Position numbers and translations under genes: made by a program. The notes beneath the pieces are model-generated. The model searched no databases, was not told the origin of the DNA, and saw only the letters and a list, made by a program, of their open reading frames with translations. A stretch of 64,000 bases of DNA from IMG/VR virus record IMGVR_UViG_3300035676_000002, positions 1-64,000 of that record. One strand, written 5' to 3'. Source of the DNA: a virus. Shown piece by piece: positions 1 to 15,850 of this stretch; position 1 is the first letter of the stretch, and each line of letters starts with the position of its first letter.

Positions 1-142
1 GGTATTACGGCGAGGGGGGAGGGGGAAGCGGGGGGAGCGGTGGGGAGCGAGCGAGCGCCAGCGGGGAACGGCAGATTGAGCGCCACTTAATTTGAACGGC
101 AGAACTAGAGCGGAGCGGAGCGCCGGAAGGTGCACAAACGAA

Positions 143-173
143 AGCGGCAGCGGGAACCTTCCCCGCTGCCGCT
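143..173 (-). terminator. Intrinsic terminator of the leftmost minus-strand operon
   Basis: Hairpin AGCGGCAGCGGG / CCCGCTGCCGCT followed on the minus strand by TTTCGTTT, just after the stop at 201. Confidence 0.55.
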
Positions 174-200
174 CCGCTCCCGCTGGCGCTTCGCTTCCGC

Positions 201-638
201 TCACGCTTTGGGGAAGGGATTATTCCATGCCAGCAAGTGTGAAGCGCAAAGGTGCACGCTCAACCCGTAAGCGTGAGCGAGCGCAATTGAGAGCGAGCGG
301 AGCGCTTCGCTTTTGTTGCTTGTGCAATCGCAAGCCACTTCCCAAGCCCAAAGCCAGAACCTTACCACTTCAGCGGGGAGCGGCACGCTTCCCGTGGCTT
401 CCCCCAAAGCGGCAATCTCAAGCGCTCCCAAGCCAGCAAGCGGCACGCTCCCCGCTTCCGCTTTCGCTTGCACCACTTCCCGATTGAAGCGCTCCCCATT
501 GCACACTTCGCAAAGGTAAATCAGATTGCGAGCGCTCCCCTTTGCGCTCCCGCTGGAGCGCTTCACCATTGCACAGCAAACCGCTTCCGCTTGGTGACAC
601 TTGCCACACTTCCTAGGTTTGAACGTTCCCGCTTTCAT
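201..638 (-). CDS. Zn-ribbon protein (CxxC...CxxC), 145 aa
   Basis: Start moved to ATG 638 behind RBS GAAGGGA; motif CGKCHQAEAVCC...IYLCEVC. Confidence 0.7.
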   Translation of the reverse strand: MKAGTFKPRKCGKCHQAEAVCCAMVKRSSGSAKGSARNLIYLCEVCNGERFNREVVQAKAEAGSVPLAGLGALEIAALGEATGSVPLPAEVVRFWLWAWEVACDCTSNKSEALRSLSIALAHAYGLSVHLCASHLLAWNNPFPKA

Positions 639-642
639 TTGC

Positions 643-1449
643 TTAGTCCCTTCCGTACCACTTTGCGAGCGCTTCAATGTAACGCTCTTGCTCGCTTGTT
701 TCGATTGATTGCGAGCAATGATTTGCTCTCACGTATTCAATTGCTTCCCGTGCTTTCATTCCCTTAGTCACCAGAACACAAGCAAGGAAGGTTCCCGTTC
801 TGCCGTGGCTTCCGATGCAACAAACAATCACCTTCCCAGCGGGGAGCATGGAAAGCAAATCAAGCCAGAAGGCAAACCCCACAGCGGGAGCGGCGTGGTC
901 AGTCCAATTGAGCGAAAGCACGGGAACGGGAGCGAAGCAATATTGATTCAGCGCTTCAAAATTGCTCCCCTCAAGTTTGGGAGCGCTCCCCACAAAGCGA
1001 GTCACCGGCGCTTTATAGGTGCCGCTGCAATCAATCACCAAGGAAGCGCCAGCGCTCACCAAGCGCATTGCTGCCGCTCCCGCAATCGTGCCGCTCCCGT
1101 TCTGATTTTCAAAGGTCACAAGCGGAGCGCTCCCGGTATGATTGCAAGCGGGTTTATTGTGCCACGCTTGGGAATAACCGCTTCCCGTTCCCCACACTGC
1201 CGCTGCCGCTTTCTTGTTGGGCTTGTTTTCTCTGAACAAGCGGCAATTGCAATTCTCACACTCCAAATCGTTTACGTGAAACAAGCGCTTGTGTGCACAC
1301 TCGCAAACGCTTTCTAGTTCAATCCCAAAGCTAAACGCCATTGCTTCCGAAAGCGTGGCTTCAGCTTTGCCGCTTGTGGCTTCCGCTTTTGCGTTCTGAG
1401 GGGAGCGCTTCCGCTCCCCTCCCTTCCCCTTGCGCTCCCTTGTTTTCAT
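643..1449 (-). CDS. Dual-specificity/tyrosine phosphatase (PTP fold, CDKN3-like) with N-terminal Cys-rich segment
   Basis: P-loop Cx5R VCCIGSHGRTGT, WPD-like WTDHAAP, Q-loop SIETSEQ. Confidence 0.85.
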   Translation of the reverse strand: MKTRERKGKGGERKRSPQNAKAEATSGKAEATLSEAMAFSFGIELESVCECAHKRLFHVNDLECENCNCRLFRENKPNKKAAAAVWGTGSGYSQAWHNKPACNHTGSAPLVTFENQNGSGTIAGAAAMRLVSAGASLVIDCSGTYKAPVTRFVGSAPKLEGSNFEALNQYCFAPVPVLSLNWTDHAAPAVGFAFWLDLLSMLPAGKVIVCCIGSHGRTGTFLACVLVTKGMKAREAIEYVRANHCSQSIETSEQERYIEALAKWYGRD

Positions 1450-1480
1450 CGCTCCTGCCCCTTCCCAGCGCTTTTAACGC

Positions 1481-3178
1481 TTAGTTCTGAAAGAGAGCGC
1501 AAACGCTCTCTTTAATTTCTTCCACGCTTACGCTGCCGCTTCCCACTTCCACGCTCCACAAAGCGCAATCAACGGGAAGGTAAAGAGCGGCGCTCCCCGC
1601 TTTGCTGGGGAGCGTGGCAAACCCCATTGCTTCCGCTGCCGTGAGCGATGCAATCAACTCGCTTGTCACGGGAAGAGTGGCTTCCTTGTAACCGCTGTGT
1701 CCCTTTGCTGTGGCTTGAATTCTGATTTGACCGCTCCCCTCCAGCGTTCTGATTTGCAGCGTGAGAATTGCCACGGGTTTAATCTCACGCTTGAACACCT
1801 TAAGCGCTCGCTCACGCTCCCACACTTGCTCCGCTTCAGAATCAAGGATTGCGCGCAAAGTGGGAAGCAAGCCCACGATTGTTTTCGCGTTCTGGCTTGC
1901 CGCTTTGTCAAAATTGTCGGTGCTCCCAAACTTTGTGAGAAGCGCTCCCCCATTATGGGAAGTGTGCACGATAGTATTGAGCGCCTTCTTACATTCCCCC
2001 AGCGCTTTGTCTGAAGGCTGGCGCACGTAAGCGGTAATCGCGTTTGTCAAATCAATCACCGCTTTGGTGCAATTCCACCACGCCACTCCACCAAAGCCGG
2101 AACACCACTTGTGGGTAAGGAAGGTTTGCGATGCTTTGCACAAGCGGAGCGTGCTTTGCGGGAAGGTGCACAACGCTTCCTTGTAAACTTGCGAGCGTGA
2201 CAAACCGGAGCGCTTTGCGTGCCGCTCTTCCCCTAAGCACGCTGCCGTTCCCAAGCGGCAAGCCCAATTGAGCGCCACTCCCAAAATGAAAGCGCCGGAA
2301 GGGGAAGCGGGGAGCGTGATTGAGTTATGCAAGGCAAACAAAATCACCTTCAAAGCGCTGTGGAGCGCTTCAGCGTCTACCGTGAGCGGCAATCCCAAAC
2401 CACGCATAACATCCCCGTGGAAGGTGCGGGGAGCGCTCACCTTCAGCGTTTGCCCCACAGCGGGAGTGTAAGTGGTGACAAAGGGAACACCACTTGATTG
2501 AGCATGGATTGCAGCGTGGCTTGTGAGCGAAGCGGTGGGAGCGTAACAAACGCTTCCCTTGGGAAGAGTGGGAACAAGCGCTTCCCACTCCAGCGGGGAG
2601 TAAATTGAAGGGTCAATAATTTTCGTTACCTTCACCGGGGAAGGGACAAAATCGAGCACCGTTTTAACTTCCACGCCTTCCCGCAATTGCACAGCATAAG
2701 TGTGGTCTGCCGTTCCCACAACTTCAATATACGCTGCCGTTCCCTTGTCACCGCTCAAACCCGCTTGATTGCGGGGAAGGTTCCCAAGCTTGCCAGCAAG
2801 GAAAATCTTACGGGTACGCTTCCCCGCTGTGGCACCGTCTGAACCTTCCCCCAGCGCAATCAAGTTATCGCTCACGATAGCAGACCAAGTGGCGCTCACC
2901 GGATGCATAACGCACACTTCCGCTTGTTCATCCGCTGCCGTGGCTTCATTCCACAGCTTCAGCGCTTCCGCTTCGCTCCCGATGCATCGGGAATCAACAA
3001 ACCCGTGTCGGGGAGTTATGGGGCAGGGACGGCAGAAGGGGGACACTTCCCGATTGAGAAATTCCCGCACGTAAAGAATGAGAGCGCCGAAAGTTTGAGC
3101 GATGTAGAAAGTGGGAACCTTCCACGTTGCATCGGAAAGCGCTTGAATTCCCTTTGCCTTCTGTGTTCTCAACTCCAT
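1481..3178 (-). CDS. PPDK/PEP-synthase-like dikinase: ATP-grasp-like N-terminus, phosphohistidine swivel domain, unknown C-terminal domain (565 aa)
   Basis: SLTSHAAIHAQSSGVP matches the PEP-utiliser mobile-domain motif TSHAAI..R..G.P; N-terminal KAKGIQAL..ATWKVP resembles the GGKA..L......VP start of PEP/pyruvate-binding domains; start at ATG 3178 behind GAAGGGA. Confidence 0.7.
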   Translation of the reverse strand: MELRTQKAKGIQALSDATWKVPTFYIAQTFGALILYVREFLNREVSPFCRPCPITPRHGFVDSRCIGSEAEALKLWNEATAADEQAEVCVMHPVSATWSAIVSDNLIALGEGSDGATAGKRTRKIFLAGKLGNLPRNQAGLSGDKGTAAYIEVVGTADHTYAVQLREGVEVKTVLDFVPSPVKVTKIIDPSIYSPLEWEALVPTLPKGSVCYAPTASLTSHAAIHAQSSGVPFVTTYTPAVGQTLKVSAPRTFHGDVMRGLGLPLTVDAEALHSALKVILFALHNSITLPASPSGAFILGVALNWACRLGTAACLGEERHAKRSGLSRSQVYKEALCTFPQSTLRLCKASQTFLTHKWCSGFGGVAWWNCTKAVIDLTNAITAYVRQPSDKALGECKKALNTIVHTSHNGGALLTKFGSTDNFDKAASQNAKTIVGLLPTLRAILDSEAEQVWERERALKVFKREIKPVAILTLQIRTLEGSGQIRIQATAKGHSGYKEATLPVTSELIASLTAAEAMGFATLPSKAGSAALYLPVDCALWSVEVGSGSVSVEEIKESVCALFQN

Positions 3179-3182
3179 TTGC

Positions 3183-3317
3183 TTAGTCCCTTCTGGCTTT
3201 GTTGCGTTTAGGTTCTGAAGCCACTTTTGCCCCTTGTGAGCGCTGGCGCTTTGGTGGGGAGCGGCAGCGGGGAGCGCCGGAAGCGGCAAGCGGCAAGCAA
3301 TGTTCAAACGTCACCAT
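3183..3317 (-). CDS. Small basic hypothetical protein (44 aa)
   Basis: ATG behind AAGGAAG; ends in the same GAAGGGACTAAGCAAATG junction as the phosphatase gene. Confidence 0.4.
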   Translation of the reverse strand: MVTFEHCLPLAASGAPRCRSPPKRQRSQGAKVASEPKRNKARRD

Positions 3318-3988
3318 CGGCGCTTCCTTACCCGTTCCCCTTCCCCTAGGGAAGCGGAAAATTCCCACGCTCCCCGCTGAAGCGCTCTAAGCGCTTGATT
3401 TTGCTCGCTTTTCCGCTCTCAAACTAAATTTTCGCTCCCTTGATTTTGCCACGCTGAAAATCGGTAAAACGATTGATCGAACGCTAAAACAAGCCCAAAC
3501 AAGCGCCGCGGTGGTGATTTTCCCTTGCAATTCTAGCACGTTAGAGCGTGCCCCGTTTTATAACGAAAATTGAAAGTGGCTTTAATTTTGCCACTTCCAG
3601 CGGGAGCGCTCCCCATATTCAAACCCCATTTAATTTTGCGCTCCCCGCTGGCGCTCCCCGCTGGCGCTTCCGGCGCTCCCCGCTGGCGCTCCGCTCCCCA
3701 CTTCCGCTCCGCTCCCCGCTGGGATTAAACCCCACTCAATTCTCACAATTGACAAAGCGCTTTCTCAATGGTAAGAATGGCTTCCCAGCGGGGAAGCGCT
3801 GGGGAGCGTGATTTTGCCCCTTCTAATGAAGGGGAAAGCGTGATTTTCGCGTTATCAGACCTTGCCCCTTAAACGCTCACAATTGCCCCACAAGCCACGC
3901 TGAAAATCGGGAGGGGCAAGGTAAGGGGCAAGGTGCGTTTGCGCTTCCTAGGTCAATTGTGCGATTTTGCCCATATTTTAGGCAAAAG

Positions 3989-4054
3989 TTATCCACAGGC
4001 TTTTCGGTGGGTTATCCACAGGTTTTCCACAGGGGAACCGGGAAGTTATCCACA
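3989..4054 (+). promoter_or_regulatory. Cluster of four co-oriented DnaA boxes
   Basis: TTATCCACA at 3989, 4012, 4046 and TTTTCCACA at 4023, each within GTTWTCCACAGG. Confidence 0.8.
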
Positions 4055-4183
4055 GGCGGTGACGGAATTTGTTAAAGCCCAAAAGGTGACAGATTTTGTC
4101 GCTGAATTTTAAGTGGGGTTTAATCCGGCGCTTCACCGGGAATCTGACACTTTCGCCTTTTCTTCGCCCCCGGTCGCCCACCG

Positions 4184-4236
4184 GCCCCGCCCCCGACCCC
4201 GCCCCCCGGCCCCGCCCCGCCCCTCCCCCCAGCCCC
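4184..4236 (-). repeat. (CCCCG)n tract; G-quadruplex-forming on the minus strand
   Basis: At least eight runs of four or more C separated by 1-2 nt. Confidence 0.75.
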
Positions 4237-4243
4237 TAAGACG

Positions 4244-4368
4244 GGCGGAATCTAAGCAGGGCGGAATCTAGGCAGAATCTCGGCGGAACCTCGGCGCGGC
4301 GGAACCTTGGCAGAACCTCCTCTGTCCTACTGATAAGGCACGCGCTAATCCTAAGCATGGCGGAATCT
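4244..4368 (+). repeat. Iteron-like array, 7 x GGCRGAAYCT
   Basis: Copies at 4244, 4260, 4271, 4282, 4298, 4309, 4359. Confidence 0.85.
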
Positions 4369-5306
4369 CTTCCCTTCCTTTTAACCAATACTTTAATTTC
4401 TTTTGCCCAATTGAATTCATTTTTGTAACATGGTCGTTGTGCAAAAGTGGGTATCCAGCCCGTGAGCAACCCTCATTTTACCCCTGATTTTATTGATAAA
4501 ACCCCTATGGTGTAGTTTTTCGTAGACACTTTTAATTTGATTGATTTTTGTGCTTTTTTGTTTGTTTTATGGCAGAAACGCGCGATTTTCCCCTGATATT
4601 TCGCATATTTAGCTCGTTTTGCCTATTTTTTAGGCACTTTCTTTCCAGCCCCTTTTCCCTATTAGCTCCCCCTCCCCTCCCGCCACTCCCTCATCCTAGC
4701 ACACGCACGCAACAAATGCAAATTCAATCGCCTTATGCCCCGCTTTGTCGCTGTTCATTTGATTTCATCCCCCCGTTTTCCTTTGAAATTCAAGTGTTTT
4801 CTAGCTTTTATGCTGTAAGTAGTTGATATATAAGGCTTTTTTTCGTTTTGCAAGACAACGAAAAACCCAACCCCTTGACGTGTAACAAAATAACACACCC
4901 CTAACCCCGCGAAAACACAAAGGAAAACAAACAAAAAGCCCCCGTAAAAAACAGGACAAAATCGACGGTCCACCTAGAAATGCGCCCACAAACGCCCAAT
5001 GCTTCCCCACCCCGCCCATGCTGTTTCCGGCAGTAATAATCCCGAAACACCCCCCACCCCTCTGCCGTCAAATCGAACCATGAAAACAAAGGGGGGGATA
5101 ACCGCACGAAGAGAGGGGATAAGGGCTTTAGGCAGGGGATAGACTCTTATGCTTAGGGGATCGTTTGTAAGACCCTTTCCCTTTAGCGGGAGCATGAGAG
5201 CCACCCTTTTGCTGAATGATAGGCTTAGGCGACTTCACTAATAGAGCAAGCGGATTGATCGTGCCTTTTTTGCAGACTATGGAAATCCGTTTGCGTTTCA
5301 TGGCGT

Positions 5307-5510
5307 TTAATCCCTATCCCGTTGCCCAATAATGTAAATCTGTTCTCGAAAATCCTCCACCGCTTGACCCACCGCAATCAACTCACGCAACGCTTTCAAT
5401 TCTAGCTCTGAAACCGTAACCGTACAAACCCCAGCCCGATTCCCCCCTAAGTTACGCTCAACCATGTTCGCAAAATCAGATACCACTTTAATTACGTAAG
5501 CATTTTTCAT
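5307..5510 (-). CDS. Hypothetical early protein
   Basis: ATG with AAGGAG RBS; last gene of a contiguous operon. Confidence 0.7.
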   Translation of the reverse strand: MKNAYVIKVVSDFANMVERNLGGNRAGVCTVTVSELELKALRELIAVGQAVEDFREQIYIIGQRDRD

Positions 5511-5521
5511 TTTTTATCTCC

Positions 5522-5821
5522 TTATCGCTCGGGAAGCCATGCCACCACTTCCGCTGTGTTCCGAAGGCACGCCGTAGCTGCCTCAATATAGGCGTAGCGC
5601 GTCGAATCAAGGTGCGGCCAGAGGGACGCTTGATAGAGCAAGTCGGAAGCGCGCATAACGCCATTGACGGCACACATAGGCACACTCCCGGCTAGCTCAC
5701 GAACGCGATTATCATACTCAATAAAAGTGTCCTCCGGTATTGGATCACACTCGCAATGGCTTTCGATATCCTTCGCCAACGCAAGCAATGCCGTCGCTGT
5801 TCGCTCAAGAAACTTTGCCAT
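5522..5821 (-). CDS. Hypothetical early protein
   Basis: ATG with GAAGGGG RBS; operon context. Confidence 0.7.
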   Translation of the reverse strand: MAKFLERTATALLALAKDIESHCECDPIPEDTFIEYDNRVRELAGSVPMCAVNGVMRASDLLYQASLWPHLDSTRYAYIEAATACLRNTAEVVAWLPER

Positions 5822-5839
5822 GTTAACCCCCTTCTAATC

Positions 5840-6199
5840 TCACAACCAGAACGGTTCGATTCCACCGGCAAGGTAATGAATAAACCCCTCCGGCCCCTTC
5901 ATCCACTTGTGGTTAAAATCCTTCTGAGGGAACTTTGACAGCCGCTCAACCTTCTCGCCGTAAATAGTCGGCTCTGCGGTGCCGTCCTTCTCGTCGTATT
6001 GCGGATACCACCTGTCGCCGCAACAAGAACAATCCACGCCGTCGTCACAGCCGTTAAAGTACAGCCCAATGCTTTCGGCCCGTTCGTTTGCTTGCTGTGC
6101 GTTTGCTGCCTCGATAATAACCCAATGCGAAATCCCCCGCTTCTCGTCAAAGTCGAAACTTCCGCCCGTGTTATTCTGGTTAAACTCAAAAAATGCCAT
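5840..6199 (-). CDS. Conserved phage hypothetical protein (QNNxGG / DCxCCGDRW family)
   Basis: Motifs FNQNNTGGSF and GLYFNG...DCSCCGDRW that I recognise from many phage early regions. Confidence 0.8.
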   Translation of the reverse strand: MAFFEFNQNNTGGSFDFDEKRGISHWVIIEAANAQQANERAESIGLYFNGCDDGVDCSCCGDRWYPQYDEKDGTAEPTIYGEKVERLSKFPQKDFNHKWMKGPEGFIHYLAGGIEPFWL

Positions 6200-6231
6200 A
6201 ACGAAACTCCTTTCCGCAAATTAAGGCTCCC

Positions 6232-6564
6232 TTAATCGGGAGCCACCCGCCCCGCCGTCTTTCGCAGGGCTTCGTTGATAACCTTCCACTGGTCGTCAGT
6301 CAGATTCGCGGCGTCAATGTTCCCGTTGCACAACGTCTGCAACATCGCCATTGCCACGATACGGGACGCACGCCGAACCATCCAGTAATCGGTGTCGGAC
6401 ACGTCGGCATCATTGCACGCCTTCGGAGAAGTGTCGCGCCCGAATTCCTTGAGCACCGTTTCGTAAGTTTCATACGGTTCCCACACTTCGGATTTGGGAT
6501 TGCGAACCGTCGCCGGATCAACAAGCATCCCCTCTTTAACCGTCAACTCTTCGATTCGTGCCAT
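6232..6564 (-). CDS. Hypothetical early protein (110 aa)
   Basis: Start moved to ATG 6564 behind GAAAGGGG, downstream of promoter 6590-6618. Confidence 0.7.
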   Translation of the reverse strand: MARIEELTVKEGMLVDPATVRNPKSEVWEPYETYETVLKEFGRDTSPKACNDADVSDTDYWMVRRASRIVAMAMLQTLCNGNIDAANLTDDQWKVINEALRKTAGRVAPD

Positions 6565-6589
6565 GTGCGTTTCCCCTTTCGTTGAACAG

Positions 6590-6618
6590 AGTCTAACAAA
6601 CCAAAAAGGAAAAGTCAA
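6590..6618 (-). promoter_or_regulatory. sigma70-type promoter
   Basis: TTGACT-N17-TAGACT with extended -10 TG. Confidence 0.75.
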
Positions 6619-6626
6619 GAAAAAAA

Positions 6627-6953
6627 TCAGCTTTCGACACAAATGTAGTAATCAATGTCGAAGCGGTCGCAGTAGCCGTAAGGATCATTCCCCCGCCAGC
6701 CGTAGCCGGTCGTGACAACGCCCCGCCCGTGCGTTACGATAGTCGCGGCAGGGTAATAGGTGAAGTCCACCCCGTCAAGGCGCAGCGAAACCTCTTCGTC
6801 GGAATACTCGCAACGGCTAATCAGCGTTGCCGTGCGTCCCTTCCCCCCGTGGTTTGTGATGATGCCACCAACCGGAGCAAACGTGTGCCGCTCCTGTGCC
6901 GGAATGTCACTCAGATACTCGTTGCGTGCCTTGAAAGCCCCTTGCCATTCCAT
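6627..6953 (-). CDS. Hypothetical early protein
   Basis: ATG behind AAAGGGG; own promoter. Confidence 0.7.
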   Translation of the reverse strand: MEWQGAFKARNEYLSDIPAQERHTFAPVGGIITNHGGKGRTATLISRCEYSDEEVSLRLDGVDFTYYPAATIVTHGRGVVTTGYGWRGNDPYGYCDRFDIDYYICVES

Positions 6954-6992
6954 TTGCGTTCCCCTTTCTGGTTTCTTGCTGCCGTTGAAAAG

Positions 6993-7021
6993 AGTTTAAC
7001 AAATGGAAATGGATAAGTCAA
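6993..7021 (-). promoter_or_regulatory. sigma70-type promoter
   Basis: TTGACT-N17-TAAACT with extended TG. Confidence 0.75.
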
Positions 7022-7383
7022 GGGGAATCTTTCAAAATTTCTTCCAGCGCAAAAAAAAGTTGCTGGCGTGTCTCGTAGGCTTCTGCCGGTTCCCATTGGC
7101 AATAGGCAAGAAACTGTTCTAACGAATCTCTTGCGAGAAGAAGCCACAACTTAGCCCCGTCTTTATTCCCCTGCTGATAATTCCACCGTGCTTGACTGAG
7201 CGAATAAAGCGCACTCGTATCCAGCCTGTTACAAATGGCTTCATCTTCGGCATCGTGATATACACCGGGACGATAGGACAGGGAGCATCCGAAGAAGCCC
7301 CCCGCCACTATCGCCACCGCACATACGTTACGGAAGCTTCGCCGTAACCGTAAGCCCGTCCTTCTTAGCGAACATCGGGACAT
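7018..7383 (-). CDS. Hypothetical protein, possible lipoprotein (true start probably near 7325)
   Basis: Hydrophobic VCAVAIVAGGFFGC segment. Confidence 0.5.
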   Translation of the reverse strand: MSRCSLRRTGLRLRRSFRNVCAVAIVAGGFFGCSLSYRPGVYHDAEDEAICNRLDTSALYSLSQARWNYQQGNKDGAKLWLLLARDSLEQFLAYCQWEPAEAYETRQQLFFALEEILKDSP

Positions 7384-7546
7384 AAACGTTAATAACCTCC
7401 AAGCCTGTTACCTTCTCGAAATCACGCACGGCGTTTGTCAAAGTAATTTCTAAGGTTCGCTTTCGAGAACGAACCTCTTCCACCGTAGGCGACTTCGGCG
7501 CGGGATTGATAGTCACGTAATTTTTCTCTTCGGGAAACATAAGCAT
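7328..7546 (-). CDS. Hypothetical early protein
   Basis: ATG behind AAGGAGG. Confidence 0.6.
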   Translation of the reverse strand: MLMFPEEKNYVTINPAPKSPTVEEVRSRKRTLEITLTNAVRDFEKVTGLEVINVYVPMFAKKDGLTVTAKLP

Positions 7547-8299: not shown

Positions 8300-8524
8300 T
8301 CAATAGGCAGGGGAAAACATCACACTATTGAACTTCCCTTTAATGCCTAGAAATTCAAGCTTCGTATGATAGGAATGAACAGCCACACGGGAAACCTCAA
8401 GGATATCCCCCACGGTAATTTTCCCGGTCGGATCGTCGCAGCTTCCCCACCGGCTTTGTAGGATATCACCACCAAGGAAAACCACTTTATCCCCCACTTT
8501 AGTTTCTGGTCCGCACGTCTGCAT
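8300..8524 (-). CDS. Small SH3-like phage hypothetical protein (74 aa)
   Basis: ATG behind GGAGG; KVGDKV...ITVGDILEV...FNSVMF. Confidence 0.7.
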   Translation of the reverse strand: MQTCGPETKVGDKVVFLGGDILQSRWGSCDDPTGKITVGDILEVSRVAVHSYHTKLEFLGIKGKFNSVMFSPAY

Positions 8525-8701
8525 AAAATGCCTCCATAAAAGAAAGGGGGATGCTTGCCTTATGTTCGATTGATACGGTGCGGCACAATTCGTTCCTCGC
8601 TTGCCAGTATCAACGGGCAATTTATCCCCCGTGTAATATGCCGCCCATAATATCGGGCGCTACTGCTTGCATGGGGCGGCGTCATGCAAGCGGCCCGATG
8701 T

Positions 8702-8998
8702 TCAAGCGTCGGCATCACCCCCCTTAACAGGATGAATGTTGACAATCGAACCTTCGTATTTATGCCCACCACAATCGAGCCATACGAATACCCGCCCCGT
8801 TTCCGTATCCCCTTCGACTAGCGTGCCGTCTAAATTATACTTTCGGCAGAATGTCCGCAACGCTTCACGGTGCATCTGTTCGCTCGAAAGCGCATGGTCA
8901 AAAGGCACCGTAACGCGCCTTCCCCCCTCTTCGTAAGCAATAACGCGAGAACCTAATACCTCTGTCGGTCCACGGTATCGAGTAAAAATAGGAAGCAT
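8702..8998 (-). CDS. Conserved phage hypothetical protein (TRYxGPTxxxGSR family)
   Basis: IFTRYRGPTEVLGSRVIA motif; RBS GAAAGGA. Confidence 0.75.
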   Translation of the reverse strand: MLPIFTRYRGPTEVLGSRVIAYEEGGRRVTVPFDHALSSEQMHREALRTFCRKYNLDGTLVEGDTETGRVFVWLDCGGHKYEGSIVNIHPVKGGDADA

Positions 8999-9164
8999 CT
9001 TAAATCCTTTCGTTATTACGTGAACGGTAGGAAAGGTTGCAAGCCCTTCCTACCGCCCCCGGTTATGTCTGCAAAGGCTGGCGATTTGGCTGCCTATTCC
9101 CATTGCAGGAAGTCGCTGGCTTTCGCCGGAACGGACGCGCTTACGCCTTCATGCAGACAAACAT

Positions 9165-9193
9165 ACCTTAACCTATTTCCTCTCGAAAGTCAA
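9165..9193 (-). promoter_or_regulatory. sigma70-type promoter
   Basis: TTGACT-N17-TAAGGT. Confidence 0.65.
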
Positions 9194-9334
9194 GCAAATA
9201 ATTTTCTTTTCGTGTATCTCTGTATCGTTTGCACTTCGGGCACCACCGAAACGCCCCCGGCTTATCGTCAAGCTTCTCATGCCCATTTTCCCAACAATCA
9301 AAATGCAACGGAAGCGAGTCGATGGTGTCCGTAA

Positions 9335-9616
9335 CTATTTTCCCAAGGCTTCATCAATCTTTCTGTCGATTTCTGACTGCCTTGCCTCTTCATCTTTATA
9401 CGCCCAATAATTTGTCCAATCGTCGTAAGCATTTTCGTCGGTGGGCGGTTCGTCGCCGCACTTCGGGCACGGCTTGGCATCTTCGTCGCCACCAGCAAAC
9501 CCACCAGAGGGCGGTTCGTCACGCCCCCCGAAGCTGTACGGCTCAACGTCAAATCCCCACGTCGTTAATCCGCACTCACACGTATAAGAAATTTCATGCT
9601 CTTTATAGCGTGCCAT
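9335..9616 (-). CDS. Acidic Zn-ribbon protein
   Basis: ATG behind GAGGGA; CECG...CPKCG. Confidence 0.65.
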   Translation of the reverse strand: MARYKEHEISYTCECGLTTWGFDVEPYSFGGRDEPPSGGFAGGDEDAKPCPKCGDEPPTDENAYDDWTNYWAYKDEEARQSEIDRKIDEALGK

Positions 9617-9721
9617 TTTCGTTTCCCTCACGGTTACGGTAAAGGTTGACATTATCCGAATACCCAAGCCAATATCCCTAGTATAATGGTCGTTACCCAC
9701 AAGTCAATAGTCGATTCCCAC

Positions 9722-9922
9722 TCAGCGCATTTTTTCATCGTTTTTCTTCCTCTGTTCGCCGTGCCAGCAAAGCCGTGCAAACTCCGTAAAAAGCGCGTGG
9801 TCGAAACGTTCGTTATCATTCGCGCACACTTCCGCCACCGCTTCAACCGCTTGCTTGTGTGATGCAGCGTCGGTAATTCTTGCCAGCCCTTTCGCAAGCT
9901 GGATGAAATCCTTTCGAGTCAT
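9722..9922 (-). CDS. Conserved small phage protein (MTRKDF...NxRFD family)
   Basis: MTRKDFIQLA...DNERFDHALF; RBS AAGGGGG. Confidence 0.75.
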   Translation of the reverse strand: MTRKDFIQLAKGLARITDAASHKQAVEAVAEVCANDNERFDHALFTEFARLCWHGEQRKKNDEKMR

Positions 9923-10172
9923 TTTATTCCCCCTTTTAGTGCTGCCAAAAATCAATCAGCACCGGCAAGATTCCCCATGCGAAATAAAACACCGCTGTCA
10001 TTAGGATTGACTTGACCATTTTTCGCCCCTCCGTCGCAACGCTTCATCACGCCAAGCCATATAGTCTTGAAACCAGAAGCACGCAATAGCTAGAAGCAAA
10101 AAATACATGGTATGCTCTCCCTTCTGTAAGAGAGCATACCATTCCAGCGCACGGGAAGCAAATGAATAAATC

Positions 10173-10418
10173 TTATGGAAAGATCAAGTGAGCAAGTTCC
10201 CGCGCCTTCGTGAAGCCTTCAACAGAGTTATGCAGTTCGCCGTTAGGATAATCGTCGTTAATGTAATACGTGTCTTGAATCACGTAATACTCCGGTGTCA
10301 AGCCGTCCCGAAATGTATTATCCAGCGGCTTAATTGTCGTGATCTTACGAACACCGGGAAAGTTATCCGGCGTCGTATAAACCCCTATGGTAAAAAATCG
10401 ACCGAAATAGTCCGACAT
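10173..10418 (-). CDS. Hypothetical protein
   Basis: ATG behind AAGGAGG. Confidence 0.65.
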   Translation of the reverse strand: MSDYFGRFFTIGVYTTPDNFPGVRKITTIKPLDNTFRDGLTPEYYVIQDTYYINDDYPNGELHNSVEGFTKARELAHLIFP

Positions 10419-10429
10419 GGTTGCCTCCT

Positions 10430-10735
10430 TTAGACCGCCCATAATCTCGTTGTTATCGGTCCACCACACTCGGGACACAGCCCGTCGTCAGCTTCCCCGC
10501 CGTCGATAAACTGCATCCAACCGCACCGCTTACTTTCCACTTCCTTAATGTGGCGGCACTTCTTCTGCTTCCACTTAAACCCTAGGCAAGTGCAACGCCA
10601 CCCATATTCGTATTCCCCTCCCGGCGTCGGTCCATAGCTCACGGTGTACGTATCCCCGTGACTTCCGGTTACTTTGATTTCCCAATGAGAGGCAGATTCG
10701 CACTCTTGAAACGGGACCGACATTAGGTCAGGCAT
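10430..10735 (-). CDS. SWIM zinc-finger protein
   Basis: YTVSY...WRCTCLGF...KCRHIK. Confidence 0.8.
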   Translation of the reverse strand: MPDLMSVPFQECESASHWEIKVTGSHGDTYTVSYGPTPGGEYEYGWRCTCLGFKWKQKKCRHIKEVESKRCGWMQFIDGGEADDGLCPECGGPITTRLWAV

Positions 10736-10752
10736 AATTTAACTCCTTCTCG

Positions 10753-11064
10753 TTACTTCTTGGTCAAGTCCACGCTGATATCGTAGCCCAATGCCCACGC
10801 AATTGTTGTAAGCGATTTAAGCGAAAGTGTTTCTTTGTCGGAATCTCTCCCGGTTAGTCCTCGAAAAACTTGCTTGATAAACTCACGCTCAAATCCGGTC
10901 TTTTCTGCTAGCACCTTGTCGTTGACCTTCTTCCGGCGCTTCACAGCAATCAGTTTCGTCAACAGCGTGTCAACCAATGACGCATACGCTATCGAGCGTG
11001 CCAGCGTTTCATCTTTACTGAGCGTGTTCCAATACTCGCGTTTTTCCTGTGTCGTAAGGTTCAT
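10753..11064 (-). CDS. XRE-like HTH DNA-binding protein
   Basis: DKVLAEKTGFEREFIKQV...LSLKSLTTIAWALGYDISV. Confidence 0.65.
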   Translation of the reverse strand: MNLTTQEKREYWNTLSKDETLARSIAYASLVDTLLTKLIAVKRRKKVNDKVLAEKTGFEREFIKQVFRGLTGRDSDKETLSLKSLTTIAWALGYDISVDLTKK

Positions 11065-11065
11065 T

Positions 11066-11272
11066 TTAATACTCCTCTAAAGATACGCAATCAATTTCCA
11101 TTTCGTCGTCATCTAACACCGTAGCAATAACCTCAATTGCCTCTTCTTCGCGGTCGGTCCTACAGTTATGAAAACAGTATTCATGCGGTGCGATTTCAAC
11201 GGCAGACGCACGCATATTATCCGCAAATTTCAAGGCTTGCAAAACAACGTGAGCGATTTTTTCGGGAAACAT
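11066..11272 (-). CDS. Hypothetical protein
   Basis: ATG behind GAAAGGG; promoter TTGACT-N17-TAAGGT at 11296-11324. Confidence 0.65.
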   Translation of the reverse strand: MFPEKIAHVVLQALKFADNMRASAVEIAPHEYCFHNCRTDREEEAIEVIATVLDDDEMEIDCVSLEEY

Positions 11273-11495
11273 TTTCTACCCCTTTCGTTAGAACTACCTT
11301 AGCAGGGATTCCCCCAAAAGTCAAGGGGAATCGTAGAAAATTATTGCTGGGTCGTCAATCGGAAGGGCAATCGGAAGGCGAGAGTAAAAAGGGCAAGTGC
11401 AACCGGGAACGAAGCACTTACCCTTGGTTGAGCGGTGGAACTTGCGACGGTGAAGGCACGCACAGATTGAAGCGTGCCTCCCCCGTCGTCCTGAC

Positions 11496-12263
11496 TTACG
11501 CGGCAAGTCGGAAGTCGCTAACTTCCCGAAGGGCATGAGTCACCGCAAGCAAAGACTGCTGGTTAGTTGAGTAAGACTTAATCGCCTTTGCAGATTCAGT
11601 AAAAGCGTTCATCAGCGACCAAGCCGTGCGCGGCTCAAACTCTTCGTGCGGCGGCTTAAAGTAGTTCGTCGCCACCGAAGGGAACAGCCGCATGGGGAAC
11701 TTTTCCGCCGCGAAGATGTTAAAAATAATCTCCTTGGCAAACCCATCGCTAACCGGGAATTCCTTCAAGTGGTCGGACAAGCCAACCAGCAAGGCGAAAT
11801 TCTCTTCCCACCGATCAATCGCGGGACCAATCTCAAGCGTAATATTGAGATTCGGCGTGTGCTTCTTGTTGAGGCAAACAAACTCCCCACTAAAAGCCAA
11901 GTTATCGCACACGAACACCCGCGAACCAGCCACAACGCCAGCCGCCCACGTCTTGTCGTTGCTGTTGCGGAAACCGATCACGCTGCGGAAATCGCCGCTA
12001 GGCGCAACCGTCGTAACATCCCACAGCCCGAAAAGCTGCAAGCCGTTCTGCTTCAAGGCGAGATGTTCGCCCACAATGCCCACCCCGCGCCGCGTCAATT
12101 CCCCCTCGATTGTGTCGATAAACTCCGCATGAGGGAGCGGCTTAAACGAATCGGTCGAACCGGGAACGGGAGCCATAAGAACCTCTTCCCGCGAAACCGA
12201 CTGAGCACCGCAATGCATCACCAATCGCCCACCGTGTTCCGTCGTTACTGCATCCCATGCCAT
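11496..12263 (-). CDS. DUF932-family protein
   Basis: GFRNSNDKT..AG.VAG.RVFVCDNLAF and TAWSLMNAFTE motifs; promoter TTGACA-N17-TAAAGT at 12294-12322. Confidence 0.85.
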   Translation of the reverse strand: MAWDAVTTEHGGRLVMHCGAQSVSREEVLMAPVPGSTDSFKPLPHAEFIDTIEGELTRRGVGIVGEHLALKQNGLQLFGLWDVTTVAPSGDFRSVIGFRNSNDKTWAAGVVAGSRVFVCDNLAFSGEFVCLNKKHTPNLNITLEIGPAIDRWEENFALLVGLSDHLKEFPVSDGFAKEIIFNIFAAEKFPMRLFPSVATNYFKPPHEEFEPRTAWSLMNAFTESAKAIKSYSTNQQSLLAVTHALREVSDFRLAA

Positions 12264-12296
12264 AATGTGTTGCCTCCTTTGTTTGATGAAAATACT

Positions 12297-12707
12297 TTAG
12301 CACGCTTCTTCGTCGTTGTCAAGGTCTTTTTTCCTGAGAGCATCCGAATAAGCGATTTCTTCCCGTGTGATCGTCGCGGCGGCATGAATGAACTTCTCAA
12401 CGTCCACCGTTTTAACCCACCCCATAACATCATCATGCTCATTCGGGACAAGCCCCGCCTTCGCAGCAACCGCATACGTTGCCCATTGGCATTTCTTATC
12501 GTCGTGGGTATCGAGCAACGCCGCAACTTCCGCGTCATCGGATTCTGTAACAAGAACAGTATTCTTGGACAAATTAACCGGCTTGTCCCTATCTGTGATG
12601 TAATTATAAGGCCCGAATTGGATTGACGCGGTTACGCCATTCGGAAACGTCATTTGAAAACCAGTGCCATACGTAATAGCCAGCGTCTTATGGTTTTTTT
12701 TGCCCAT
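12297..12707 (-). CDS. Conserved phage hypothetical protein
   Basis: GFQMTFPNGVTASIQFGPYNY...AEVA...DVMGW motif. Confidence 0.75.
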   Translation of the reverse strand: MGKKNHKTLAITYGTGFQMTFPNGVTASIQFGPYNYITDRDKPVNLSKNTVLVTESDDAEVAALLDTHDDKKCQWATYAVAAKAGLVPNEHDDVMGWVKTVDVEKFIHAAATITREEIAYSDALRKKDLDNDEEAC

Positions 12708-13095
12708 TCTTTTTCCCTTTCGCCTTCGTTTCTTGCACTGTTTTAATCAGTGCGGTAATATACTCGCTTTCGGATGCAAAGGCACACGGATTACACGGTG
12801 CCGAATCTACAAACTTTCGTGCGCTAGTTATCGTGCCACCAAAAAGCGACTTGATTGCTTGCGCGCCGCTTTCCTGCCACTCTAGATATTCCTCTGGCGT
12901 GTCATCCGGCGCTTCTGATTCTTCCGTTGCCGGTTTTGTTTTCTTAGATTGCCGATATTGCTCATAAAGGTATACGGAAAATTTAACAATGCCCATAAAG
13001 GTGCCGGTCAGAAATACGAGCGTAAAATATACCATTGCTCCTATTAGACCGGCACCATTTCCACCACCATGCCCCCCGCCCCGCCCCATGCTCAC
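12688..13095 (-). CDS. Membrane protein
   Basis: Gly-rich N-terminus followed by a hydrophobic helix. Confidence 0.6.
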   Translation of the reverse strand: MSMGRGGGHGGGNGAGLIGAMVYFTLVFLTGTFMGIVKFSVYLYEQYRQSKKTKPATEESEAPDDTPEEYLEWQESGAQAIKSLFGGTITSARKFVDSAPCNPCAFASESEYITALIKTVQETKAKGKKNGQKKP

Positions 13096-13100
13096 AGCGG

Positions 13101-13454
13101 CTAAAGCGACATATAAATTCCCTCACCCGCTGCACCACGCTTTAGCAAGTCAAGAAATTTATCGCGCTTCTCCTTGAAGTATTCAACCCATTCCGTATAC
13201 TCCTTGTCGTCACCTTCGCAACCTAGCTCTTTTGCGGAAGGAATTTCCGGCTCAACATCTTTATACTGGTCGTAATATTCTTGACAAGTCTCTGGCGGCA
13301 AAACGCTTTCGTCATTCAAGGCAGGGATTACGTCCTTCCACCATGAAAACCCTAGCGTCCACGCGAGGTTAGTCGGATTATACGAATCACGAAAATAATC
13401 GTTATCCGAATCGCTCAGTTTACCGTCTACCATCAAATAGCAATCTGCGCCCAT
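13101..13454 (-). CDS. Acidic hypothetical protein
   Basis: ATG behind AAGGAG; YFRDSYN motif. Confidence 0.7.
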   Translation of the reverse strand: MGADCYLMVDGKLSDSDNDYFRDSYNPTNLAWTLGFSWWKDVIPALNDESVLPPETCQEYYDQYKDVEPEIPSAKELGCEGDDKEYTEWVEYFKEKRDKFLDLLKRGAAGEGIYMSL

Positions 13455-13467
13455 GATTCTACTCCTT

Positions 13468-13674
13468 TTACCGCACGTCGAAATATTCGCAAGCCGTGGC
13501 AAGCAAATGGTTATAGTCGCCGCTCATCATTTCTTTTAGCATCGTATCAATCTTCTCCTGTTCAAACTTTGCCTTGCGAGCGGCTTGCCGACACGCGCCC
13601 ATGATTGCAAACGCATTGCCGTCCGTACCCACCAGCTTAAGAATAGGCTTCTTCGGTTCCTTAACTGTTGTCAT
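13468..13674 (-). CDS. Conserved small phage protein (GxDGNAF family)
   Basis: LVGTDGNAFAIMG...MSGDYNHLL. Confidence 0.8.
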   Translation of the reverse strand: MTTVKEPKKPILKLVGTDGNAFAIMGACRQAARKAKFEQEKIDTMLKEMMSGDYNHLLATACEYFDVR

Positions 13675-14035
13675 CGACTTTCTCCTTATCGGTTGCGGGA
13701 TTAGTAATAATAATCCACCGTTCTGCTTGGTCTTTCAACTCTTCTACAACAACGCCCATAACATCGCCGGTCCCGTAGTCGTCATCCCCCATATGAGAAT
13801 TAAGCACCACGTCGGACCAATCAATCCACTTGCTGAAATAAAAGTTATAGATGCCCGTAACCCGCTTGGCTACGCTCGTTAAATGCGGTTGCACTAACCT
13901 TGTTTCGTATTCGTATATCGTAATCAAGGCGTGCGGCTCTAGCTGGTTTGCGCCCACAACGCGCCACCCCAGCTTTATGCGTTCCGTAGACTTGAAATAT
14001 TCAAGGGCTTGTTCCTTGTATTCATAATCCGACAT
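13661..14035 (-). CDS. Hypothetical protein
   Basis: ATG behind GAAAGGGG; promoter TTGACA-N17-TAGTAT at 14058-14086. Confidence 0.65.
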   Translation of the reverse strand: MSDYEYKEQALEYFKSTERIKLGWRVVGANQLEPHALITIYEYETRLVQPHLTSVAKRVTGIYNFYFSKWIDWSDVVLNSHMGDDDYGTGDVMGVVVEELKDQAERWIIITNPATDKEKVDDNS

Positions 14036-14082
14036 AACGCTTCCCCTTTCTGAAGCCATACTAGCACGCCGTCGCTATCGTG

Positions 14083-14295
14083 TCAAGTTTTTTCCTGCTT
14101 CAAGCGATCCCCCTTCAGCATGGCTAGAATATTTTCAATCTGGTCGTGAACGTCGATTGCCTCCATGATACTTAACCGAACATCCCACTTATAAAGAGGG
14201 CTTTTAATATGCATGATAATCGGCTTAGATTGCATCACGTCGGTCGGTCCTAAGTAGGACAGGCTTATTTTTCTGTCACTCATAATTATCCCCAC
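14083..14295 (-). CDS. Hypothetical protein
   Basis: Contiguous operon. Confidence 0.55.
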   Translation of the reverse strand: MGIIMSDRKISLSYLGPTDVMQSKPIIMHIKSPLYKWDVRLSIMEAIDVHDQIENILAMLKGDRLKQEKT

Positions 14296-14492
14296 CGTAA
14301 ATTCTTTAGTGCTTGCTCTGCCATTCCCCTTGTATCAAGAAGAATGGCGCGGCACGGTTCGCAAAGAATACTAACGTGTAGCCACAATTTGTCACTTAAT
14401 TGCTCCGAAAGCGGCTGGCTCAAACCATACGTCTTGTCGCATCCGATGCAGTCGCTTATGATTGTCTGCCTATCAAGTTGTTTAGTGTGCAT
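14286..14492 (-). CDS. Zn-ribbon hypothetical protein
   Basis: CIGC...CEPC. Confidence 0.6.
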   Translation of the reverse strand: MHTKQLDRQTIISDCIGCDKTYGLSQPLSEQLSDKLWLHVSILCEPCRAILLDTRGMAEQALKNLRWG

Positions 14493-14715
14493 AATCGCCC
14501 CCGTGGTTTAGCCACCCCTTAAGTTGCAAGCCGTTTTTTCCTTCCGGCTTTACATACATTGACCACACGGTTCCTCCGGTATTGTCAAGCGCATTAACCT
14601 CAAGAATCTTATTTGCATATTTCTTGACTTCGATTACCGGCTTAACTTCCGGCTTGACGCTCTTACTTAATGAGGCTGTCATTGCGCTACCGTTTCCTTT
14701 CTCTTGAGGCACCAT
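14482..14715 (-). CDS. Hypothetical protein
   Basis: Contiguous operon. Confidence 0.55.
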   Translation of the reverse strand: MVPQEKGNGSAMTASLSKSVKPEVKPVIEVKKYANKILEVNALDNTGGTVWSMYVKPEGKNGLQLKGWLNHGGDYAH

Positions 14716-14839
14716 GCGACAAGGGCTTGCTCCCGCGCCTTTTCCTTGTCCGCTTCTATTTGCTCATAGGCGCATATCCAACAGCCGTCGCTATCCATGC
14801 GCCTTTTATGCCGCCAACAAACCGAAATTATTGTAGCCA

Positions 14840-15289
14840 TTACTTAATCCCCCTTCGCTGGCAATCGTGGTAATCTTCGACAATATACTGTAGCGTTTCA
14901 ATGTCGATTTCTTCGGATTCAACTTGCATCCAGCCCAACGATTGAACGTGGGCAAAGAAGATTACTCCGCTTGTATAAATCTTTGCCGTCTGGTAATCTA
15001 CTTTGACCTTCGGCGCTTTCGCAATCGCCTTGAGGCTTTCCGTATCATAGCAATCAATTTCTGTTACGTCAACGCACAATTCATCTAGCTCGTCGCAATC
15101 CTTGCACCACTCCCCACCATTCCAATACATTTCGAGGGAGAAAATCTCAGGGTCAACTTGCCGGATGCTTTCGAGGGACCAAATGCGGTGTAGCATCGCC
15201 TCTGCTTCCGGCCCCGTAATATCAACCATATAATGACCAACGGTTATGACTTCTTCGTGCTGCTGGTCCGCTTTCAATAGGAAGATCAT
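14840..15289 (-). CDS. Acidic hypothetical protein
   Basis: RBS AAGGAG; promoter TTGATT-N17-TATACT at 15316-15344. Confidence 0.7.
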   Translation of the reverse strand: MIFLLKADQQHEEVITVGHYMVDITGPEAEAMLHRIWSLESIRQVDPEIFSLEMYWNGGEWCKDCDELDELCVDVTEIDCYDTESLKAIAKAPKVKVDYQTAKIYTSGVIFFAHVQSLGWMQVESEEIDIETLQYIVEDYHDCQRRGIK

Positions 15290-15326
15290 GGTTAAACTCC
15301 TTTCCGCTAGGCCAGAGTATAGCCTA

Positions 15327-15500
15327 TCAGATTGAAAAAATCAAGGGGAAAGTTTCAGGTTCCCAACGATGCCACCAGCCCACCCGATGCTCACACGATT
15401 CGCAGACGTATTCCCCCATCGTTTTATCGAGGTAATAATTCCCGCCGCACTGGCACTTCTTCGGCTTCTTCTCTTGCGGTTTCATCGTGCTTTCCTCCAT
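15327..15500 (-). CDS. Small Zn-ribbon protein
   Basis: CQCGG...YVCESC; lies just downstream of promoter TTGATT-N17-TATGGT at 15507-15535. Confidence 0.6.
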   Translation of the reverse strand: MEESTMKPQEKKPKKCQCGGNYYLDKTMGEYVCESCEHRVGWWHRWEPETFPLIFSI

Positions 15501-15564
15501 GCCGACACCATAGCACACGCCGGAAGGGAAATCAAGAGAAAAAATTAGAGGGTGGTTAATCTGC

Positions 15565-15659
15565 GGAGGGGGATCGTCGGGGAGTTTCGGATTAGGGGGG
15601 AGGTAAGTTACGGGGGAGGGGATCGTCGGGGCGGGGCGGGGCGGGGTAGCGGGGCGGGG
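15565..15659 (+). repeat. G-rich tract (GGGGC repeats, G4 potential) with a GGAGGGG(G)ATCGTCGGGG direct repeat
   Basis: GGGGCGGGGCGGGGCGGGGTAGCGGGGCGGGG at 15628-15659. Confidence 0.8.
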
Positions 15660-15671
15660 CAGTATAAGCAC

Positions 15672-15767
15672 GGCAGAATCTTGCCTTGCCCATAAAGCCC
15701 CGCAGAATCTCGGCCCCGACATTAATCGCGGCAGAATCTCGGCTGGCCTATAAGTGCGGCAGAATCT
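15672..15767 (+). repeat. 4 x (G/C)GCAGAATCT at 28-29 bp period
   Basis: Copies at 15672, 15701, 15730, 15758. Confidence 0.85.
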
Positions 15768-15850
15768 AGGGGAGGCAACAGAACGAATCGAGCATCATTT
15801 GGAATAATGCCCCCGCAACAAATCCAATGACAAAAACAAGGAACATTTCG

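Follow-up and report, generated by a model that had tools for sequence, protein, structure and literature searches.

The 112,442-bp genome of an uncultured phage (IMG/VR record IMGVR_UViG_3300035676_000002, of which positions 1 to 64,000 form the window analysed here) carries two related elements, E2 (4165-4368) and E3 (15565-15781), each consisting of an array of short direct repeats beside a G- or C-rich tract and neither having a like elsewhere in the genome. The best explanation, which we hold tentatively and with a confidence a little short of half, is that they are iteron-like protein-binding arrays that, with their G4-prone tracts, control replication or early transcription at either edge of a block of early genes.

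Repeat arrays and tracts

A motif scan of the whole genome found 14 occurrences of GCRGAAYCT, all on the + strand, and 11 of them fall in two places: seven in 4245-4368 and four in 15673-15767, which are the copy numbers given for these arrays (at 4184-4368 and 15565-15767) in the initial annotation. No other arrays of this type exist across the genome. When E2 and E3 are aligned with each other the match far exceeds shuffled controls (z 6.9), and the repeat common to them measures 10-17 nt, with a core GGCRGAAYCT and a long form TAAG-N3-GGCRGAATCT; GCAGAATCT is present in each of the four E3 units and CGGCAGAATCT in three of the four. The iteron pattern, one word repeated directly at least three times in helical register, is found in both arrays (seven repeats at 11/16 nt, four at 28-29 nt).

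Only five 60-nt windows genome-wide are at least 60% G or at least 60% C, and three of these are at 1-76, 4147-4253 and 15586-15674. The E2 tract is the reverse complement of the homologous E3 tract (z 2.9), and for that reason the three sites cannot be regarded as one same element, as had been proposed: the kinship of E2 and E3 holds, but their tracts are inverted relative to one another, and the site at the left end, E1, aligns significantly with neither. E1, put forward as a third copy at 14-107, does combine a G tract with two CGGCAGA words at a distance of 28 nt (there are only 14 + strand occurrences of CGGCAGA in the whole genome), but it is a weak look-alike of E2 and E3, the degenerate start of module A (Table 1). 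Homology with E2/E3 was rejected both for E1 and for the start of module B, the alignments not being significant.

One relative, L005, was found for comparison, and its sequence stops short of E3. All seven E2 cores are unchanged in it (0/70 mismatches, as against 9/61 in the spacers; P = 7e-4), a pattern that suggests that the repeat cores are under purifying selection while the spacers drift. The E2 tract has kept its composition but is only 62% identical in sequence and differs by a 10-nt indel. Searches for further relatives returned nothing from a phage collection at the DNA level, nothing from prokaryote genomes scanned with a three-repeat pattern, and unrelated matches only from IMG/VR, which was queried by protein and with four DNA patterns; a protein profile search recovered only distant dikinase-phosphatase pairs, with neither boxes nor tracts.

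Table 1. Features at the left end of the window and around the early block (strand "." where a module is meant as a whole)
Feature	Position	Strand	Description
Boundary word GGTATTACGGCGA	1-13	+	First bases of contig and of module A
Module A (zone 1)	1-4091	.	Word-restricted DNA with an AGCGCT/GCTTCC/GGAGCG dialect; paralogue of module B
E1	14-107	+	G4-type G-rich tract (14-60) followed by CGGCAGA twice (69, 97)
Phosphatase gene, dual-specificity/PTP-like	643-1449	-	Pfam PTP-SAK 6.7e-6, just under cutoff
565-aa "dikinase-like" protein	1481-3178	-	Phosphohistidine-swivel-like TSHAAIH motif
Rightward sigma-70-like promoter	3749-3778	+	10/12 match; points toward DnaA boxes and E2
Block R	3965-4091	+	Hairpin and four DnaA boxes; 127 nt
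Spacer between block R and tract	4092-4164	+	Conserved, 90% identical in L005
E2 tract	4165-4237	-	C-rich on + strand, so that the G4-type runs lie on - strand
E2 array	4244-4368	+	Seven GGCRGAAYCT repeats; spacings 16, 11, 11, 16, 11, 50
AT-rich non-coding stretch	4369-4640	+	64% AT, T-tract rich; terminator-like hairpin 4620-4636 at its end
Terminator-like hairpin	4940-4956	-	Near left end of leftward early block
Zone 2	4957-15485	-	About 30 small leftward genes, nearly all orphans; CpG-rich codon use
Candidate promoter of first zone-2 gene	15506-15534	-	TTGATT, 17-nt spacer, TG-TATGGT; under scan threshold, read from the sequence
E3 tract	15565-15660	+	G4-type G runs on + strand
E3 array	15665-15781	+	Four 29-nt units; spacings 29, 29, 28

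The hub beside E2 and the early block

E2 belongs to a 1.7-kb non-coding hub in which a rightward promoter, DnaA boxes, the tract, the iteron-like repeats and an AT-rich stretch follow one another, the parts from which iteron-type replication origins or control regions are made. The DnaA boxes already noted at this junction are four in number (3989-4054, spacings 23/11/23), share one orientation and helical register, and stand 190 nt from the E2 array with the promoter aimed at them; a TTGACA promoter-like site also occurs in the matching stretch of module B and of L005. All four boxes, which lie in an untranslated region, are direct, and no large inverted repeat was found. Beyond the array, 100 nt of the AT-rich flank (4520-4620) are 98% identical in L005; DnaA boxes and an AT-rich stretch, as in iteron-type origins, both adjoin E2. 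Of the bent-DNA tracts claimed for this junction, T-tract phasing by E2 appears only moderate, judged by the raw phasing. An Rfam scan returned tRNAs only. As a post-hoc lead, the word ACTTTCG is common to the sequence upstream of the module B boundary and that upstream of E2.

E3 lies in the gap that separates the end of the nucleotide-metabolism genes from the first early gene, at a distance of 130-275 nt upstream from the candidate first early promoter. This position, the uniqueness and polarity of the arrays, the homology of E2 with E3, the conservation of cores over spacers and of tract composition over tract sequence, and the arrangement of boxes, promoter and flank all argue for an iteron-like function. 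Several observations weigh on the other side: neither array has a recognisable initiator or DNA-binding gene beside it; E3 has neither DnaA boxes nor an AT-rich flank; a second pair of DnaA boxes, at 39351/39375, has no array; GC skew tracks gene direction and carries no origin signal; and the comparison extends to one relative, which does not reach E3. Among the 30 larger zone-2 ORFs scanned there was no Rep or recognised DNA-binding family (weak SWIM, PR-domain and ArfA matches only), although one of the orphan proteins of zone 2 could still be the initiator despite having no recognisable family.

On the preferred interpretation, E2 and E3 are two copies of one bipartite cis-acting element, in which a direct-repeat array, most likely bound by one sequence-specific protein, is accompanied by a 70-100-nt G4-prone G/C tract. 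The two copies occupy the non-coding gaps on either side of the 11-kb early block with its small genes, and both would control events inside the cell rather than the entry of DNA. E3 would then be an auxiliary array, and the protein bound there could set the level of early transcription or else interact with E2 as a pair. The tract, being strand-asymmetric, would serve as a polar barrier to transcription entering the arrays; its RNA is C-rich in the transcripts that approach it. The sequences show that the elements exist, are related and unique, are conserved and lie where described, whereas protein binding and a part in an origin or in control are inferred.

That last property also lends itself to an explanation in terms of transcription alone, in which Rho would load on the C-rich RNA of each tract and the arrays would serve as operators, with no role in replication or entry. 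The RNA of the strand read by approaching transcription is at least 60% C, and has the C-rich, G-poor character of a rut site of about 70 nt or more; it extends over 70-100 nt, in the leftward-read genes at E3 and in transcripts that start at the rightward promoter at E2, and each of the elements is positioned upstream of a leftward unit. We nevertheless consider such pure transcription-unit boundaries unlikely, since they would leave the DnaA boxes and the conserved AT-rich block unexplained, intrinsic terminator-like hairpins are already nearby, and some phyla, to which the host may belong, have no Rho.

The claim that composition shifts at the elements is borne out by change-point analysis, whose best breaks coincide with E2 and E3. 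Within 5-28 kb the best single change point for CpG and GC is at 15750-15800 (LLR 34, against 2-12.5 for bulk 23-kb windows); at the left junction the break falls at 4350 for GC and at 3850-4250 for TA. Word usage before about 4000 is indeed extremely restricted, with 247-328 distinct 5-mers per 500 nt before 4 kb compared with 368 +/- 17 in bulk, and the middle zone is as CGTCG-rich and promoter-driven as had been described (3.6 CGTCG/kb in 4.4-15.5 kb versus 0.5-0.7 elsewhere; 15 sigma-70-like sites on its coding strand). CGTCG was rejected as a DNA signal: the sites fall in two codon frames (xxC GAC Gxx and xCG ACG) with no flanking consensus, and therefore reflect CpG-rich codon use. The dialect words showed no helical periodicity. 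Avoidance of restriction sites was rejected as the cause of the restricted zones, and with it goes the supposed parallel to the restriction-site-poor first segment of T5: module A carries 29 AGCGCT and 62 GCGC sites, module B carries 83 CCGG, and the two have no fewer distinct 6-mer palindromes than a normal 3.4-kb stretch.

Modules A and B and the contig ends

Module B occupies 108372-112442 of the genome, and modules A and B are diverged paralogues of about 4.1 kb, each with its own word dialect, that lie in direct orientation at the two contig ends. They are not identical repeats, their proteins being 51-55% identical (51% for the phosphatase and 55% for the 565-aa protein, whose family includes about 100 metagenomic sequences). 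Elsewhere, in phages and bacteria alike, the phosphatase gene always comes after the dikinase-like gene. The 13-mer GGTATTACGGCGA with which the contig starts occurs once more in the genome, at 108372, where it opens module B, and the 50-nt block that spans it there is 100% conserved in L005. The final 127 nt of the contig exactly repeat 3965-4091 (block R), which is an assembler k-mer signature, and because of this the right end is an assembly-graph break and not a demonstrated terminus. The two modules may stand in tandem, lie at the termini, or derive from two strains.

It is a real possibility, though one we incline against, that A and B represent alternative forms of a single locus, present in two co-occurring strains or as one terminal repeat and linked through block R by an assembly join, in which case the "three zones" would be two zones and a foreign allele. 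The record is a JGI/IMG metagenome contig, and 127 nt is the usual maximum assembler k-mer. In L005 the order is B-R-E2-zone 2, a B-type module running straight into E2 and zone 2 with module A absent; block R, identical between A and B, is only 83.5% identical to L005; and zone 2 and the 3 kb preceding B share a mild form of the CpG-rich usage of module B, to both of which module A is alien. A simple two-allele bubble, however, would give module A a left flank of the type (Y) found left of B, and this is missing; a true tandem B-A, or A and B at opposite virion ends, would yield the same graph; and the A-type protein is found on seven public contigs, six of them other than this one, so that module A is not a one-off.

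The boundaries of the module also bear on whether it could be a long direct terminal repeat with E1 and E2 as packaging signals, that is, arrays by its edges that serve concatemer processing. The contig begins at a unit boundary, the 50-nt block across the other boundary is conserved, E2 lies 75-280 nt past position 4091, and L005 presents the collapsed order Y-module-zone 2 that such a repeat would produce. Still, every module edge is at least 11.5 kb away from E3, the contig ends at the k-mer limit before any visible right edge of the unit, and TerL gives no inference of packaging type; we judge this account very unlikely. Whichever arrangement is correct, the contig ends need settling from reads before models of entry are made to rest on them.

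Comparison with T5, T7 and iteron replicons

In T5 the stop region is untranslated, contains DnaA boxes and direct repeats, and lies at the inner edge of the terminal repeat (bioRxiv 10.1101/866236; NC_005859 annotation). By analogy, the 4.1-kb terminal module would enter first, halt at the DnaA boxes/E2 until its genes are expressed, and perhaps halt again at E3 after the early block, a staged entry that we judge quite unlikely. The layout does parallel the T5 left terminal repeat, with leftward genes, a phosphatase at the extreme end and a protein of about 560 aa beside it, then at the inner edge a long untranslated stretch in which clustered DnaA boxes and a direct-repeat series reach beyond the repeat edge, and then small early genes. 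The start of the contig exactly at the first base of module A, a module in direct orientation at both ends, the coincidence of composition change points with the elements, and the promoter-side ends of the leftward gene units, which fall just inside each element, are consistent with such a scheme as well.

There is, however, no sequence or gene homology with T5: pairwise comparisons with A1, A2 and dmp were negative, a whole-genome tblastn search with the T5 LTR proteins had no match below E = 0.03, and TerL is unrelated to that of T5. The end repeats of T5 are identical, whereas the modules here are diverged and the right end is a k = 127 assembly break, and the sole relative has no module A at this junction. 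T5 boxes are paired inside 131-bp inverted repeats, whereas the four here share one orientation. T5 has neither a G4 tract with an array nor another site 11 kb farther inward; a second stop at 15.7 kb would be without known precedent, and module A is not poor in restriction sites. The role of DnaA is itself unproven in T5 (bioRxiv 10.1101/866236), where DnaA boxes and repeats occur in a non-origin context, a point that also tells against the iteron-like interpretation. A version in which the modules are the two virion DNA ends and the tract-and-array elements are polar pause sites, halting entry in two or three steps until genes already inside act, in a lineage unrelated to T5, is a long shot. 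If entry stops were proven, staged genome delivery would no longer be a peculiarity of T5, and the T5 DnaA-box idea would gain an independent case.

The terminal repeat of T7 has short-repeat arrays next to it, and here too short direct-repeat arrays lie immediately beside a putative terminal-repeat edge, but unlike in T7 one of them, E3, is far from any edge.

Iteron replicons such as RK2 oriV, P1 incC/incA and P4 ori/crr combine DnaA boxes and iterons with AT-rich and GC-rich parts, and often carry a second, distant array. The control-region interpretation that we prefer draws on this likeness: a DnaA cluster, direct repeats in helical register, an AT-rich and a GC-rich stretch, and a second array kilobases off are all present here. 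The differences are that the present repeats measure 10 nt and are spaced at 11/16 nt, as opposed to 17-22 nt at about 22 in those origins, and that no Rep-type gene was found beside the arrays. To our knowledge, a G4-prone tract is not a described part of iteron-type origins, and if the arrays do mark an origin or control hub, they would represent a new bipartite design, a G4-prone tract with iterons, and would offer a way into the study of replication and early-gene control in an uncultured phage lineage that is deeply divergent.

The E2 and E3 elements

E2 and E3 (tract plus array at 4165-4368 and 15565-15781) represent a genuine bipartite cis-element, conserved and unexplained, at the borders of the early block. 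The window covers the opening 64 kb of a single 112,442-bp contig, a virus record of JGI/IMG metagenome data, which codes for TerL, portal, major head protein, helicase, ribonucleotide reductase, an SbcCD-like nuclease, primase, MazG and dNMP kinase; no close relative of this contig is present in the phage collection. A scan of all 112,442 bp found 14 copies of GCRGAAYCT, every one on the plus strand. The two elements align with each other far better than block-shuffled controls do (z 6.9) and have in common a longer site, TAAG-N3-GGCRGAATCT; each array is preceded by a tract of G or C runs, 70–100 nt long. The initial annotation had counted the same element three times, and this kinship holds for E2 and E3, whereas E1, a G tract with two CGGCAGA words 28 nt apart (the repeat spacing of E3), aligned significantly with neither; CGGCAGA itself occurs 14 times on the plus strand of the genome. 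The G4-type tract was likewise assigned to all three sites: 60-nt windows of at least 60% G or at least 60% C number five genome-wide, including 1-76, 4147-4253 and 15586-15674, but at E2 it is C, not G, that dominates the plus strand of the tract. This tract aligns with the E3 tract once one of them is reverse-complemented (z 2.9), so that at one of the two sites the tract runs the other way round with respect to the array.

Coordinates of the principal features (window numbering unless stated)
Feature	Position	Strand	Detail
Module A	1-4091		zone 1
E1	14-107		
Promoter	3749-3778	+	rightward; 10/12 match; hub part 1
DnaA boxes	3989-4054		four
E2 array	4245-4368	+	seven GCRGAAYCT copies; motif scan
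Terminator-like hairpin	4620-4636		last hub part
Zone 2	4957-15485		early block
E3 array	15673-15767	+	four GCRGAAYCT copies; motif scan
Three tRNAs	38259-38497		tandem
DnaA-box pair	39351-39383		GTTATCCACA; 24 nt apart
Module B	genome 108372-112442		L001 8372-12442

Conservation was assessed against one relative, L005, a 12.7-kb metagenome contig that stops short of E3, and so covers E2 only: the seven cores have 0 of 70 positions mismatched, compared with 9 of 61 in the spacers (P = 7e-4), while the tract retains its C-richness at 62% identity with a 10-nt indel. This indicates that the arrays are constrained in sequence and the tract in composition. Nearby, 4092-4164 is 90% and 4520-4620 is 98% identical. 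Similar words (GGCAGAATCT, GGCAGACTTC, GGAGACCTC) lie in a long non-coding run at about 3700-4250 of an unrelated viral contig, IMGVR_UViG_3300049638_000526, and such arrays may recur in other phages.

Compositional zones and paired modules

Three compositional zones had been proposed, with changes at these elements, and 5-mer counts, change points and CGTCG density all bear this out. Distinct 5-mers per 500 nt number 247–328 in the first 4 kb versus 368 ± 17 in the bulk; between 5 and 28 kb, the best single change point for both CpG and GC falls at 15750-15800, at E3 (LLR 34, whereas the best points in 23-kb windows of the bulk reach 2–12.5), and the GC change point by the first junction falls at 4350, at E2. 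Zone 2 is, as described, rich in CGTCG (3.6/kb versus 0.5–0.7 elsewhere) and in tiny genes, with about 30 small leftward genes, almost all orphans, and 15 sigma-70-like sites on their coding strand as candidate promoters. Because its CGTCG sites occupy two codon frames and lack a flanking consensus, a DNA signal was rejected in favour of CpG-rich codon use.

Modules A and B are paralogues in direct orientation that start with the same 13-mer, end with the same DnaA-box block and have conserved non-coding blocks in common. Each carries on the minus strand a phosphatase-like gene and a 565–573-aa swivel-domain gene, whose products are 51% and 55% identical between modules, respectively. The remaining DNA, coding and non-coding, uses a different restricted vocabulary in each (AGCGCT/GCTTCC/GGAGCG in A, GGCGTC/GTCCCG in B), and codon choice differs with it: ACG makes up 79% of Thr codons in B versus 32% in A, and AGC 52% of Ser codons in A versus 18% in B. 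T5 injects a restriction-site-poor first segment, a trait that neither module shares.

The genes for the swivel-domain protein and the dual-specificity phosphatase are a conserved pair (window 643-3178; L066 5887-8359; L090-L093), which in a 41-kb podovirus stands at the start of the early genes, beside terL, and is also present in Chloroflexi, Acidobacteria and Salinarimonas genomes. The tandem tRNAs are His-GTG, Asn-GTT and Tyr-GTA; for these amino acids bulk genes prefer NAT codons and the end modules NAC. The bulk genome (77 kb; window 28000-64000, on to genome 105000) contains just 29 of the 64 possible six-base palindromes, which points to strong, genome-wide palindrome avoidance.

Contig ends and the arrangement of the modules

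The contig closes with 127 nt (genome 112316-112442) that copy 3965-4091 exactly, the match stopping one base further in. The usual largest k in assemblers for such metagenome data is 127, and a contig that reaches an already used graph node ends with an exact k-length copy. The right end, which carries this k-mer signature, is therefore an assembly break, and the contig cannot be taken as a proven, complete linear genome. Beyond it the sequence most likely continues as 4092 onward, as supported by L005 (about 83% identical), where the order is the 104.1–108.3 kb region, a B-type module, the DnaA-box block, E2 and zone 2; module A is absent from L005 at this junction. The first base of the contig is the first base of the shared 13-mer, and a 50-nt block across the start of module B is 100% conserved in L005; the left end is consistent with a genuine edge of the unit, for instance a cut site or the boundary of a terminal repeat. 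Three arrangements fit: a tandem B-A pair that is cut where the two modules meet, A at one end of the virion DNA and B at the other, or a join of two strains differing in their terminal module. The DNA-entry model is built on provisional contig ends.

Proposed roles: a control element, or staged entry as in T5

E2 sits within a 1.7-kb non-coding hub, in which the promoter is followed by a hairpin, the four DnaA boxes (confirmed at the first junction, in a single orientation, spaced 23/11/23), the tract, the seven repeats, an AT stretch (64% AT, many T tracts) and the terminator-like hairpin. Promoter and terminator would together yield a non-coding transcript of ~850 nt (3785-4636) that runs from the DnaA boxes through the tract and the array and across the AT-rich block. 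Another DnaA-box pair is intergenic and far from the modules.

Iteron-type origins hold parts like those of the hub, often with a second distant array, and E3 is flanked on one side by the last nucleotide-metabolism gene and on the other by a candidate promoter for the first gene of the early block. On these grounds we favour a reading in which one DNA-binding protein would occupy both arrays and control replication start and/or early transcription, with the tract acting as a would-be polar barrier against incoming transcription. Against this reading, E3 lacks DnaA boxes and the pair at 39.35 kb lacks an array; no initiator-like gene was found near the arrays among the 30 larger zone-2 ORFs scanned.

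That the genome instead enters the cell in stages, as proposed by analogy with phage T5, seems unlikely. No homology was found between T5 left-repeat proteins and the whole genome, the DnaA boxes are differently arranged, modules A and B are not identical, and the role of DnaA in T5 is itself a hypothesis (bioRxiv 10.1101/866236). In favour of staged entry, module A and the hub resemble the T5 left repeat in layout: there the pre-early genes run leftward, with a phosphatase outermost and the 556-aa A1 next to it, and the inner edge has an untranslated stretch of 1.6 kb that contains DnaA boxes and numerous repeats (bioRxiv 10.1101/866236; NC_005859).
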